Part shown: piece by piece, positions 43,060 to 47,572 of the stretch | Layout of the letters: each line of letters begins with the position of its first letter | How positions within the stretch are numbered: position 1 is the stretch's first letter | Source of the DNA: a virus | Lineage: Duplodnaviria > Heunggongvirae > Uroviricota > Caudoviricetes | DNA: 64,000 nucleotides | Strand: one strand, 5' to 3' | Virus record (IMG/VR): IMGVR_UViG_2877251553_000001 | Span: 1 to 64,000 of that record | The notes under the pieces: model-generated | Told to the model about the DNA's origin: nothing | The model's database searches: none | The model's input: the letters and a program-made list of their open reading frames with translations, nothing else | Position numbers and translations under genes: made by a program

Positions 43060-43101
43060 GAAAAACCGCAGACACGACGTATGCATGACGTGCTGCGGTT
43101 T
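43060..43101. terminator. long hairpin between convergent tfa and the GIY-YIG gene; also copy 1 of a ~30-nt repeated motif
   Basis: AAACCGCAG...CTGCGGTTT inverted repeat enclosing ACACGACGTATGCATGACGTG. Confidence 0.45.
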
Positions 43102-43112
43102 ATGCTTATCAC

Positions 43113-43891
43113 TTAAAGACTCAAAATTAGGTGAGTAACGGACCGGGACATAGCTCCTTTTTTTCTTAATTCATCTGGTATTTTTTTTCCAAGATAAAGA
43201 TTTGCTATTTCAGGTGGGGCTTCTCGACCTTCAAAACCATAGCGCGAACTTTGTGTTGCCTCAAAGTCAGGATCCTCGTCCCAGTATTTCAACGAAGGGA
43301 AATTTTCACGTGTTGATTTGAGCCATTTATCAGCAATGAAAACCCCTCGAACGATCCCCCTTACAGTAGCAAGAATGATTTCTGCTTGGCTGGCGCGAGA
43401 GACATTAATGCGCCAGCTAAATCGAACCGCATCATAAAGCTCTGAATCCTTTGCACTTCTGTTAACGGATATCATTAATGCTTTATGATGAAATGTTATG
43501 GTTTCGGGCTGATATGTTGCTATCAACTCTTTGACATGCGCGGCGCCGAATTCATTGCTGCCAGCACCATTCATGATATTCGTTAACCCAGGGTAGGCAT
43601 CAATAAGTGCTGCTTCAACTTCGTACGCCGTCTTTTCATCAGTCATTCCGTGTCGATGGATGACATGGATAACTTCAAGTCCTGCTAACCTTATTTCTCT
43701 AATTTGCTTTAGCTTGTTGCTCAGTAACTCGTCATCATCAGTCGCTGCCACTTCACCGCGCATATGGGCAAATACGCGGTTACCTTTGCCTTTCCCTACA
43801 TAGAAGGTGCTTCCGTCCTCGGATCAATCAATCGGTATACATACCAGCCAAGGTGTTCAATTACTCCAGAAGGAAACTCAGTAATATCCAT
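43113..43891 (-). CDS. GIY-YIG nuclease-domain protein (~259 aa); -1 frameshift at a T-run near 43795
   Basis: Manual translation from ATG at 43891: [48 protein letters not shown]...; GIY...YIG-like motifs (YVYRL / FYVGKG), then R and E at expected spacing. Confidence 0.65.
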
Positions 43892-44297
43892 TTTGCAATA
43901 TCTATGAAGAATTATTTGTGAGACGTATATTAATGATCATTGCAAGGGCTCACAACCAGTAGTGTTGAGAAAACCATCGGAGAAATGAGGCTAAGCCTTT
44001 GAATTTACATAGTACAAAAAAGATACTTTTCCTCATAATGTGAGCTAATTTTATGTTTCGTTTGATGATTGGACCGGTCTCGAAAACCGTAGACACATAG
44101 TATGCGTTAATTTATGAACAAACTACTTGTCTGCTGTTTTTCTGTCATTAGTCGTATATAGAATGATTCTCTATGCCTAACAAAGCATCACCAGTGCTAG
44201 ATTACGTTGTAGTCACTGTTTAAATATCCAGATAAAACATTTCCTTCTGGGTTGAATGAGTGATAAAGTTTCACCCATTAGACCCCTTGGAGGAATT

Positions 44298-45730
44298 ATG
44301 TCTGAATTTGAAGTGTTGGCACAGCATCTGCTGAAGGAAGCCGAGGCGGAAGAAAAGCTGCGACAGGAAAATGATAAAAAGCTTATCGAGAAAGTGCTGG
44401 AAATCTATGATCAGAAGTATGTGGCTGAATTACTGAGAAAAGTCGGAAAAAATGAGTGGAGCCGTGAAACCATTAACCGCTGGATTAATGGCAAGTGTTT
44501 ACCAAAATCGTTGACTTCAGTAGAAGAGTCTCTTCTGCGTAAGATGCTACCAGAACCACCTGCAAACCATCCGGAATATGCTTTCCGCTTCATTGACTTA
44601 TTTGCTGGAATTGGAGGGATACGGAAAGGTTTTGAGGCCATTGGAGGCCAGTGTGTTTTTACCAGTGAATGGAATAAAGATGCTGTGCGTACATACAAGG
44701 CCAACTGGTTTAACGATGAACAGGTGCATAAATTCAATCTCGATATTCGGGAAGTCACGCTGAGTGATAAAACCGATGTATTGGAAACGGATGCTTATGC
44801 ATATATTGATGAGCATGTGCCGGATCATGATGTGCTTCTTGCGGGGTTCCCGTGCCAGCCATTTAGCCTTGCTGGTGTTAGTAAGAAAAACTCACTTGGT
44901 CGTGCGCATGGTTTTGAATGTGAAGCACAAGGAACACTTTTTTTTGACGTGGCACGTATTATACGAGCAAAAAAACCGGCAATTTTTGTGCTGGAAAATG
45001 TCAAAAATCTGAAGAGCCATGATAAGGGTAAAACTTTCAAAGTCATTATGGAGACCCTTGACGAGCTGGGCTACGAAGTTGCCGATGCTGCAGAAATGGG
45101 AAAAAACGATCCAAAGATTATCGATGGGAAGCATTTTTTGCCTCAGCATCGTGAACGCATTGTTCTGGTCGGATTTAGACGAGATCTGAATATTCACAAG
45201 GGGTTTACCTTGCGTGATATCAGTCGTTTTTATCCGGAACACCGCCCATCATTTGGTGAATTGCTGGAGCCTGTAGTCGACAGTAAATATATACTTACGC
45301 CAAAACTATGGGAGTACCTTTATAACTACGCCAAAAAGCATGCAGCCAAGGGGAATGGTTTTGGCTTTGGGTTGGTCAATCCTGAGAATAAGGAAAGCAT
45401 TGCACGCACACTTTCTGCCAGATATCACAAAGACGGATCAGAAATTCTTATTGATCGTGGTTGGGATATGGCAACGGGAGAGGCTGACTTTATGAATGAG
45501 AGTAATCAGGCTCGTCGACCACGCAGGCTGACTCCCGAGAGTGCGCACGCCTTATGGGATTTGAAAAACCTGGAGGGAAACCATTCCGTATTCCGGTTTC
45601 AGATACTCAGTCATATCGGCAGTTCGGTAACTCAGTTGTGGTGCCAGTATTTGAAGCTGTTGCCAGACTTCTGGAACCCTATATCCTCAAAGCTGTTTCT
45701 GCTGATGCTGGTAAGACTGGGCAGCCTTGA
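44298..45730 (+). CDS. DNA cytosine-5 methyltransferase (Dcm / M.EcoRII-like, CCWGG-type); -1 frameshift at a C-run near 45533
   Basis: Strong resemblance to remembered E. coli Dcm ([14 protein letters not shown]...GFPCQPFS...ENVKNL...[15 protein letters not shown]); restoring one C gives a Dcm-like C-terminus. Confidence 0.85.
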
Positions 45731-45764
45731 GAACATCTCCCGGCCTTTTAAGCCGGGAGTCAGC

Positions 45765-46979
45765 CTATGATAGTTCAGCGTAAAGCTCTATCAGCTCAGT
45801 AATGAATGCTCCGAGCGTTATTAATTCTTCTCTAACTGCTTCTGGGTATTTTTTATGTAAAGTTGATGGTACAACGAGTCTGACACCCGCATCTTTCATT
45901 TCTCGGTATTGTGCTGAAGAAACACCTTCTTGCAGTGTAAATAAATGTACCTGATGGATTTTATCTGCTTCATTCAGTATCTGACGCCAGCGATCTTTGC
46001 AGGTGGTCTTTACTGCCAGCATACGTAAGTTTTCTACAGGAAATTCAACGTTATGATATGCCTCTGCTGAAGGAAACAGGAAATCTGGTTTTTTATTACC
46101 TTCAGTAACTGCCTGAGTGGAGAAATGCCGTAGTCCGTGCTCGATAAAAAGCTTCTCTAGGTGAAGTTCAAGTGATTTGCCTGCCCTTGATTTACGTCGA
46201 TTACTGACAGAGTTGGCTAATGCAATAAACTCATCTACAGAATCGAATCCTTTCTTAATAATATCAAGAACATGTAATTCCTCGACGAGTAGAAAAATAT
46301 CATACTCGACACGCCGACGGTCAATCAGTTGCTCATCTGGATCCTTGGAGTTTTTAGCATAATGGCCAGCAGCATATTGAATAATTTCGTTTCCAGAAGG
46401 AAAACGCTTCTTCCAGTCTTCAGGAATAACATATTTATGATTTACTGGAGTTTGCTGAAGAGACAATCCGCCCAAAATTTGTCCGGCAGGGCCGGAAATT
46501 AGGGTTCCAGGTATGATTTCGCCAATAGCAGACTCGATGATATCCTCTTCATCGGGATTGACGCAGACCCATATATCTACCTCGGAACAGTCAGTGTTCT
46601 GTTCGTTTAACCTGAAAGCAAGAATTGTGAGGGCTCCTGTATTTTCAGGGTTCTGTAATGGACTTCCTCTCCCCCAGCGCGTAATTCTTTTTTCGTTTCG
46701 GGTCTTACCAAAATAACGGTTGTTGTAATAAATTGCGCGTGCTTGGGTATCAGGGCAATCATGGGATGATACATGCGCAGTAAGGAAGACTGAAGGGTTC
46801 AGTTCGCGAGTATGATTGATAGATGGAAAAAGCTTTTCAACGATATTTGAGGGGATATAAAGTCCGACCTGATGGCCACCTGTTGCGCCTGTGTCGTTTG
46901 CAGAAAGGCGTTTGATGTAGATAAAGTAATTCCCGCTTGCGATATCAAGCAGCCAGTTATGAAAAACCGACATATACAT
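45765..46979 (-). CDS. type II restriction endonuclease, EcoRII-like (CCWGG)
   Basis: 404-aa ORF convergent with the Dcm-like gene; N-terminus (M)[25 protein letters not shown] matches remembered R.EcoRII. Confidence 0.8.
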
Positions 46980-47572
46980 CCCTTTGTTAACATACAGTCA
47001 GGGTTAACATTTTTCCATAGTTATAGATAAGCGGCTAGGAACTTAAGGGAAAAACAAAAAGCCCGCATAAGCGGGCTTTTGTGTCACTCGAGAGCCGCGG
47101 CTCCTTTGCGTATCCTTTTTTGTCTCCTCACCGTCTGGTCGGTGTCCTGCTGAGACTGCTAACTTCCTGTTTTTGTTGGTGTTGCCCTTACACCGTCCAA
47201 TCATGATTGGTGGAGCTGGCGGGAGTTGAAACCGTAGCCACGTCGTATGCAAGAACGTGCTACGACTGGCTGGTGAACTTCCGATAGTGCGAGTATTGAA
47301 TGATTTCCAACTGTTATCGATTTTGCGTATTTTTTGCATGAGAGGATTTTTACCTCCTCCCACCGATCCTCCATGGCTTTACGCCAGTGTCTCTAGGACT
47401 GCTATGTGCCAAAAGCAGAACTTGCTTACATTGTGCTATGTTAATTTGTTGGGAGCAGGTCACAAAGTCCAGCCAGGACGAAAATAAATAATTGCCATAC
47501 ATTTAGTGTTGATTATTTCGGGATTGTTCATCTATTCTGATTGTATCAGCGAGCAGGCCGGAGTCACTCTTC

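Follow-up and report, generated by a model that had tools for sequence, protein, structure and literature searches.

Conserved boundary hairpin copies as probable junction relics in the accessory slot of a lambdoid Escherichia coli prophage

The DNA analysed here, hereafter the window, comprises 64,000 nucleotides (nt), positions 1 to 64,000 of the IMG/VR virus record IMGVR_UViG_2877251553_000001; it is Escherichia coli DNA, with a lambdoid prophage at thrW containing three copies of a short repeat around a GIY-YIG gene and a restriction-modification (R-M) gene pair. The three copies are very probably junction relics of a conserved boundary hairpin, and the 96-nt element that this hairpin opens appears, from the comparison of related phages, to mark the right border of the accessory slot between the tail-fibre module (tfa/pin) and the dinI/att/int end. 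The whole account, comprising a boundary hairpin, successive splices of cassettes, a role as transcript end or insulator, and exchange by short homology, seems reasonably likely. The feature is of an ordinary kind, a mosaic boundary or attachment (att) relic, yet it is a useful landmark and apparently undescribed.

A repeat search of the window returned one family of three members (43063-43088, 44084-44109, and 47229-47254), copies 2 and 3 being 77% and 85% identical to copy 1, respectively, and the pattern AAACCGYAGMCACNNNGTATGC, with two or fewer mismatches, matched exactly three places in 64 kb, whereas shuffled sequence would give 0.01. Both approaches bear out the three copies reported in the first-pass annotation, and the repeat is non-random. 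The consensus is a 33-34-nt inverted repeat, CCGYAG-(A/C)-CACG...GTATGCA...CGTG-CTRCGG, comprising arms of 11-12 bp and a loop or spacer of 9-11 nt, and each copy represents the whole or a part of it; the sequence common to all three ends after about 22 nt, and copies 1 and 3 share the full hairpin. Repeat search, pattern, folding, and relatives define the copies, which carry no strand assignment, as (i) copy 1 (43066..43098), a complete hairpin, CCGCAGACACGACGTATGCATGACGTGCTGCGG, located 14 nt past the tfa stop codon and about 22 nt ahead of the 3' end of the convergent GIY-YIG gene, with T/U runs flanking it on both strands; (ii) copy 2 (44087..44105), a 5' half, CCGTAGACACATAGTATGC, limited to the 5' arm and GTATGC; and (iii) copy 3 (47232..47265), a complete hairpin of the T/A variant CCGTAG...CTACGA. 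On the plus strand, copies 1 and 3 fold at -20.8 kcal/mol (z -5.3) and -21.2 kcal/mol (z -3.6), respectively, and copy 2 displays no fold (z 0.03). The dyad symmetry is preserved in 33 distinct versions, including chromosomal and lambda ones, 90.8% of cells being paired and two of the pairs showing compensatory changes.

The near-identical locus L001 (strain KKa014, 99.9%) is annotated, in order, with a tail fibre, tfa, a LEM-3-like GIY-YIG protein, a cytosine methyltransferase, and a type II endonuclease, the DNA from the endonuclease to the right attachment site (attR) being non-coding; the repeats therefore fall in an accessory slot that has the late operon on one side and attR on the other. 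The copies, which are direct repeats, are confined in the window to this one slot. They lack an Rfam family, at gathering or E<=1 thresholds, and number three in 64 kb, so that the dispersed REP/ERIC-type repeat named in the first-pass annotation as the finding that would overturn a special role was not encountered, and neither was a BIME-type one.

Across more than 100 related loci the hairpin stands exactly at switches of homology, namely behind tfa, pin, or a fossil ssrA core and at either edge of the GIY-YIG cassette, which upholds the proposal, among those first put forward, of recombination or module-junction sequences. A scan of viral contigs (120+ loci), plus several E. coli genomes, discloses conservation over about 96 nt rightwards from CCGCAG. 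To the left of the hairpin the sequences are unrelated between groups, the neighbour being tfa (of several types) or pin in some loci and, in others, an ssrA core, whether intact or decayed, or the GIY cassette with its upstream end. Past the 96-nt unit, on its right, the contexts separate once more, into dinI, lambda tI/attP/int, or other DNA. The element (47232..47327, strand unassigned), delimited from an alignment of 46 distinct versions, joins the hairpin to a 60-nt core in which CGATAGTGCGAGTATTGAATG is nearly invariant, and the window contains a single full element, copies 1 and 2 being devoid of the core. In all, 192 phage records contain the unit, among them lambda, HK97-like phages, and many Shiga toxin (Stx) phages. 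Lambda carries a copy at 24162-24257, between ea47 and ea31, 86.5% identical to the window element, and a hairpin-only copy at 22575-22608 after tfa, resulting in the layout tfa-hairpin-ea47-hairpin-element. The element lies between tfa and attP/int in HK106 and between nleC and dinI in a Stx2a phage; in e14 of K-12, the hairpin is absent after pinE. Adjoining the element on the right, a block at 47328..47431 (strand unassigned) is common with the lambda b region (lambda about 24258-24350).

The related loci display a series of arrangements from which, by comparison, the stages and the junction positions can be read. So-called empty alleles follow the scheme tfa/pin-hairpin-element (L031, L009, and HK106), and GIY-only alleles the scheme hairpin-GIY-hairpin-element, with two full hairpins (L012, L018, L026, L054, and L098); in the latter, the sequence upstream of copy 2 leads into a full hairpin and the element. 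The ssrA-integrated phages, as in strain H1, read hairpin-GIY-half hairpin-M-R-arm-ssrA, M and R denoting the methyltransferase and endonuclease genes, and one locus (L073) carries the R-M pair without GIY. The GIY cassette can follow tfa, pinE, or a decayed ssrA core, and its first hairpin is a composite each time, with a left half that fits the local context and a right half (CGTGCTGCGGTTTATGC), plus TTTATGC, that fits the cassette. In copy 1, the left part is identical to that of the hairpin in empty phages sharing this tfa type. Some of these hybrid hairpins have T.G-mismatched stems. The combination of a local left half, a cassette-type right half, and mismatched hybrid stems therefore points to exchange inside the hairpin. 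Copy 2 stops in the loop directly after GTATGC, at which point R-M-specific DNA begins, and on this evidence the R-M cassette has its left junction here. Like GIY and lambda ea47, a methyltransferase-like gene has the hairpin as its border. In two loci of another prophage lineage (L031 5984-8937 and L063 1400-2484), the same slot holds an IpaH-like leucine-rich-repeat/E3-ligase effector and an S-adenosylmethionine-methyltransferase-like gene, this cargo being bounded by a variant hairpin (loop CTTAAGCA), followed by a duplicated tfa 3' fragment and then by a normal hairpin.

The joint at copy 3 involves a relic of ssrA. An arm of about 155 nt on the minus strand (47053..47207), including a terminator at 47057-47080, matches at about 91% the DNA 3' of ssrA in about 5000 E. 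coli genomes, that is, in most of the species, and is followed by a fossil att core of 23 nt (47208..47230, minus strand), identical at 23/23 positions to the 3' end of the transfer-messenger RNA (tmRNA) encoded by ssrA, from the T-loop to CCA. As in an ssrA attachment core, this sequence adjoins phage DNA. In strain H1, the tfa-GIY-M-R block (99.6% identical) continues through the same arm directly into the real ssrA gene, and the arm therefore corresponds to the tail-fibre-side attP arm of an ssrA-integrating phage. In ssrA-integrated relatives (H20-H25), homology ends at window position 47234, a few bases from the inner end of the core at 47230, and in strain QDFD216 the sequence from just left of copy 3 rightwards directly follows the pinE stop codon at 99% identity; copy 3 therefore sits on a mosaic joint. 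Its left edge is the point at which ssrA, the H1 phage attP, and the window diverge, immediately after GTTGAA at the T-loop edge, and the local TGAAACCG at this joint is similar to TGAACCCG of ssrA. The joint may have arisen from an integrase event at a secondary site or from a microhomology join, and TGAAACCGTAGCC is a candidate secondary att site for the ssrA-type integrase of the H1 prophage. The composite of ssrA arm-core and hairpin is widespread, with decayed cores in other prophages, and appears to be old.

The first-pass annotation had also noted a TGATTGG shared upstream of copies 2 and 3. The heptamer is present at both, but it reads TGATCGG at copy 2 in close relatives. At copy 3, it forms part of a palindrome, CCAATCATGATTGG, located just downstream of an ssrA 3' end. 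Between the left flank of copy 2 and the ssrA core, the 8-mer ATGATTGG alone aligns (p about 0.03-0.15), and the TGATTGG at this copy is either a vestige or a product of chance.

The arrangements point to a stepwise history in which (i) the ancestral state would have been tfa-hairpin-element; (ii) the PD-T4-3 (GIY-YIG) cassette would have been placed between two hairpins; (iii) in an ssrA-integrating phage, an EcoRII-type R-M cassette would have replaced the stretch from the loop of the second hairpin through to the att arm, leaving the half hairpin of copy 2; and (iv) the right end of that phage would have been joined, at the T-loop edge of the ssrA core, to the hairpin-element of a thrW prophage, giving copy 3. 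Several observations weigh against this account or parts of it. The order of steps (iii) and (iv) is reconstructed from extant arrangements and undated. Not all junctions lie at hairpins, the methyltransferase-like cassette having one joint inside tfa, and hybrid junctions show small loop indels (AAGAAGATCGTG versus AAGATCGTG) that homologous exchange does not predict. The covariation in the stem is modest and could reflect few events; the T/U tract is context-dependent over 54 contexts, strong after this tfa type and absent in most; and the loop, at 9-11 nt, is long.

How the cassettes exchange admits more than one explanation. The favoured route runs through the short shared hairpin or element, with tfa or dinI as second arm, because no recombinase travels with the element, some joints fall outside hairpins, and the length involved compares with the Red-beta minimum of about 30 bp. 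Red-beta recombination operates with about 30 bp as near its minimum length (De Paepe et al., PMC3945230), and Rad52-like recombinases are the driving force by which diverged sequences form mosaics (PMC3945230). Since all phages of this kind have the hairpin at the same place, it may be a short homology patch by which Red or RecA pathways move cassettes between phages, a proposal held at slightly under an even chance. Alternatively, the hairpin would be the core of a site-specific recombination system, in which a tyrosine integrase acting in trans inserts or excises cassettes, in the manner of integron cassettes or cis-mobilizable elements, and partial copies are hybrid att sites. Inverted arms of 11-12 bp around a 9-11-nt spacer do resemble a recombinase core site, and the breakpoints cluster in the spacer, copy 2 stopping after GTATGC and hybrids switching between GTATGCA and CGTG. 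Moreover, one source (PMC8112680) reports the 96-bp element as an att sequence flanking phages inside prophages; copy 3 abuts the ssrA att core exactly at the T-loop edge; and the resemblance of TGAAACCG to ssrA TGAACCCG means that it could have served as a secondary att site. However, no integrase accompanies the element, its right neighbours being dinI and a dusA-type integrase, lambda int/attP/tI, or none; the R-M side of copy 2 lacks any right arm; the loop junctions are imprecise; and the window has a single full element, so that this mechanism is unlikely. A bolder form, which we regard as quite doubtful, treats the 34-nt hairpin as a dedicated cassette-exchange site, in which case lambda-like phages would have a miniature integron-like array following their tail-fibre genes. 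If true, hairpin-bounded single defence or effector genes would be cut and inserted at the loop by an integrase in trans or by a hairpin-specific Red step, accounting for gene hopping between unrelated prophages and for the two lambda copies around ea47.

As to function, the hairpin is commonly placed immediately downstream of accessory genes that read leftward (GIY, ea47, the methyltransferase-like gene, and dinI, the last with a 60-nt spacer) and likewise downstream of the rightward tfa, and this placement therefore suits a bidirectional transcript-end or insulator hairpin. The hairpin may accordingly separate the rightward late operon from leftward accessory genes, a tentative assignment somewhat below an even chance. 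Judged as intrinsic terminators, copy 1 has the expected form on either strand, copy 3 is not followed by a U tract, and copy 2 has no stem; the mostly absent U tract, the long loop, and the conserved GTATGCA suggest that the family is not one of plain intrinsic terminators. A minus-strand small RNA, either stand-alone or derived from a 3' untranslated region (UTR), has also been considered, with the 60-nt core as seed region, the hairpin as terminator, and the copies as duplicated RNA 3' ends. The stop codon of dinI lies directly against the element, on its right side, in many phages, giving a minus-strand dinI 3' UTR that ends in the hairpin; after this tfa type the hairpin leads into UUUUUCUUUUU on the minus strand; and a near-invariant 21-nt stretch shows no codon periodicity. 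Against these stand the lack of an Rfam match, a U tract missing in most contexts, a second predicted helix that covariation supports in part, and the complete absence of the core from copies 1 and 2, which together make the small RNA improbable. The first-pass annotation had offered binding sites for a common regulator and remnants of a homing endonuclease target, and both now appear highly improbable. Operators of one regulator for the GIY-YIG, methylase, and endonuclease genes would agree with the position of copy 2 between the divergent GIY and M genes and with that of copy 3 upstream of R, a gene context that was correctly described; nevertheless, copy 3 lies outside the endonuclease promoter, with the strong minus-strand terminator at 47057-47080 intervening, copy 2 is a truncated half-site, copy 1 lies at gene 3' ends, the module has no regulator gene, and the hairpin also occurs in phages devoid of these genes (lambda, HK106, and Stx phages). 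The GIY-YIG gene does lie between two hairpins in several different phage backgrounds, as target remnants of a homing enzyme might suggest. A homing target, however, would call for a homing nuclease and a site restricted to nuclease-less alleles; here the protein is the anti-phage defence protein PD-T4-3, the hairpin stands on both sides of its gene, unrelated cassettes (lambda ea47 and the methyltransferase-like gene) are hairpin-flanked in phages without a GIY-YIG gene, and conservation across the 192 phage records holds regardless of that gene.

The nearest functional analogue of the hairpin-bounded cassettes appears to be the promoter-early stem-loop (PeSL) cassettes of T4-type phages, in which conserved stem-loops border non-essential genes of a hyperplastic region (Arbiol et al. 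2010, PMC2839356) and recombination between PeSLs results in insertion, deletion, and replacement of genes (PMC2839356). PeSLs belong to another phage lineage, are unrelated in sequence, and comprise a strong promoter and a proven terminator, whereas the present repeat contains no promoter, its terminator role is putative, and its copies per genome are far fewer. Compared to rho-independent or moron terminators, the hairpin likewise presents a GC-rich stem between convergent genes, and copy 1 has T runs on both strands; it differs in a larger loop, in the lack of a U tract in most members, and in the conserved GTATGCA loop, which terminators do not need. Integron attC sites are not indicated: no RYYYAAC/GTTRRRY core sites occur in the sequence, no intI is annotated in L001, and the cassette genes face both directions, unlike co-oriented integron cassettes. 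The pix/gix/hix sites are 26 bp long, with 12-bp inverted half-sites, a 2-bp core, and inverted pairing; the present copies are direct, with arms 9-11 nt apart, and in relatives the hairpin follows the pin stop codon but lies outside the invertible segment. Lambdoid phages possess exchangeable effector loci, a term employed in PMC8112680, or a moron slot, downstream of the tail-fibre genes, as well as the lambda b region. These accounts refer to the same genomic slot and concern gene content, which in the window and its relatives includes defence genes, toxin-antitoxin genes (RnlAB), sitABCD, and IpaH-like effector-type proteins. The literature searched on lambda b-region features and tail-fibre-proximal hotspots yielded no report of a repeated hairpin at cassette joints, and hairpin-only scars around single cassettes, lambda included, are apparently without description in it.

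The core genome of E. coli also carries the element (L001 25258-25352; 84.8% identical to the window element), located in the ykgJ-ecpE spacer and present in about 4960 of 5426 genomes; the rest of the spacer extends 29 bp to the left and 184 bp to the right. Nakamura et al. 2021 (PMC8112680) describe attB-in-PP_2, a 96-bp att sequence from effector-locus regions of E. coli prophages that (i) is homologous (about 81%) to the ykgJ-ecpE spacer, with homologous flanks of 184 and 29 bp; (ii) is carried by Sp15 and nleC-bearing Stx2a phages; and (iii) flanks, as an att repeat, lambda-like phages that have inserted into prophages. The window element matches attB-in-PP_2: both measure 96 nt and are homologous to the ykgJ-ecpE spacer, the flanks of 184 and 29 bp fit the spacer exactly, the carriers are the same (Sp15/VT1-Sakai and nleC-bearing Stx2a phages), and both lie downstream of tail-fibre genes, base-level identity being deduced from length, flanks, and carriers. 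The two descriptions differ in that attB-in-PP_2 is presented there as a host-derived landing site for whole phages, whereas the window has a single full copy, with no direct repeat around an integrated phage; the other two copies, unlike the direct repeats of attB-in-PP_2, are hairpin-only or half-hairpin scars beside cassettes of 1-3 kb. Within the spacer (L001 25224-25535), the 184-bp right flank corresponds to a frameshifted dinI remnant (tblastn 3e-6). This organization suggests that the chromosomal copy may be the fossil right end of a lambdoid prophage (dinI plus element) and not the source of the phage copies, a reading that would reverse the published inference that phages took the att sequence from the chromosome. 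A prophage integrated at ykgJ-ecpE, sought in order to map the crossover, was not found, the flanks being absent from all loci examined; a long Stx1 record considered as such a carrier owes its length to a Mu insertion.

Other readings of the element were considered and set aside. As coding sequence it yields plausible peptides on both strands, but it lacks codon periodicity, and its commonest variant has no start codon. A PGAP 'capsid protein' pseudogene of 81 nt (about 47257-47337), lying across the boundary between the element and the lambda-b block, is not credible as a capsid fragment. On the minus strand, a strong Shine-Dalgarno sequence GGAGGAGG and an ATG at 47328-47374, conserved with lambda about 24258-24300, would open a small open reading frame (ORF) leftwards through the element and the hairpin, 53 residues long in lambda; two lambda records annotate a hypothetical protein there, and dinI-type variants have no start codon. 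The search for known RNA families at permissive thresholds gave no match, whether for the window, for lambda, or for a dinI-type locus, and a second helix in the 60-nt core, predicted by RNAalifold with one pair co-varying in 8 sequences, was dropped, being broken in the window copy. A 365-residue integrase, whose gene lies about 316 nt past the element on the right, might have pointed to the element as its attP; it is, however, a dusA-type integrase, situated at the tail-fibre end of dusA prophages. A species-wide scan found the lambda-type element mostly on contigs that were either about 48.4 kb long with low coverage or very short (L138, L141, L155, and, among the short ones, L135, L137, and L140), and such contigs appear in assemblies of Pseudomonas, Shewanella, Streptomyces, Enterococcus, and others; they are almost certainly lambda control-DNA contamination in public assemblies.

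The prophage is delimited on the left by thrW, a tRNA-Thr (CGT) gene at 1369..1444 on the plus strand (ARAGORN and Rfam), which serves as left attachment site, and on the right by a direct repeat of the 3' 48 nt of thrW (48643..48690, plus strand). The slot and its border comprise (i) tfa (42469..43051, plus strand; L001 annotation), the tail fibre assembly gene that ends the late operon, frameshifted in the window by a 2-nt gap at 42772 relative to L001; (ii) PD-T4-3 (43121..43891, minus strand; coordinates transferred from L001 12724-13497), a single-gene defence cassette whose LEM-3-like GIY-YIG product matches Pfam PF22945 (2.2e-14) and PADLOC PD-T4-3 (E 7.6e-140), the gene being broken in the window by three 1-nt homopolymer gaps relative to L001; (iii) an EcoRII-type (Dcm-like) C5 cytosine methyltransferase gene (44298..45730, plus strand; Pfam PF00145 and PF18284, PADLOC MTase_II), frameshifted at 45533; and (iv) an EcoRII-type restriction endonuclease gene (45765..46973, minus strand; Pfam EcoRII-N and EcoRII-C, PADLOC REase_II 1.5e-233). 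Relative to L001, the window lacks bases from homopolymer runs at 42772 (two) and at 43122, 43144, 43816, and 45533 (one each), a pattern that looks like long-read errors more than true pseudogenes. An IS3-family insertion element (41034-42306), with two overlapping transposase ORFs, breaks the 3' part of the side tail-fibre gene, which is intact in L001. The Rfam family IS009 (229 bits) falls at 42810-43008, entirely within the tfa coding sequence, a placement repeated in other phages, lambda among them; what is listed as an RNA family may be no more than a conserved coding stretch of tfa. A second integrative element (48854-50195), in tandem at the thrW repeat, comprises a 404-residue P4-type integrase followed by an int-alpA RNA (RF02996), and KKa014 is free of this island. 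The isrK and C4 antisense RNA pair, a P1/P7-type immunity module, occurs twice on opposite strands (8009-8197 and 58264-58491), one pair inside the thrW prophage and the other beyond the second integrase.

The element, together with its hairpin, offers a simple landmark for the right edge of the accessory slot in lambda-like prophages, and anything lying between tfa or pin and the element can be regarded as cargo, including defence systems, toxin-antitoxins, and effectors. In the present prophage, the nested copies would trace the stacking of PD-T4-3 and the EcoRII R-M system and the subsequent transfer from an ssrA-integrating phage into a thrW prophage. The comparison also links a published in-prophage attachment site with a sequence that lambda, HK97-like phages, and the core chromosome all carry. 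The accepted picture of phage mosaicism stands, and these observations add to it a concrete junction sequence.

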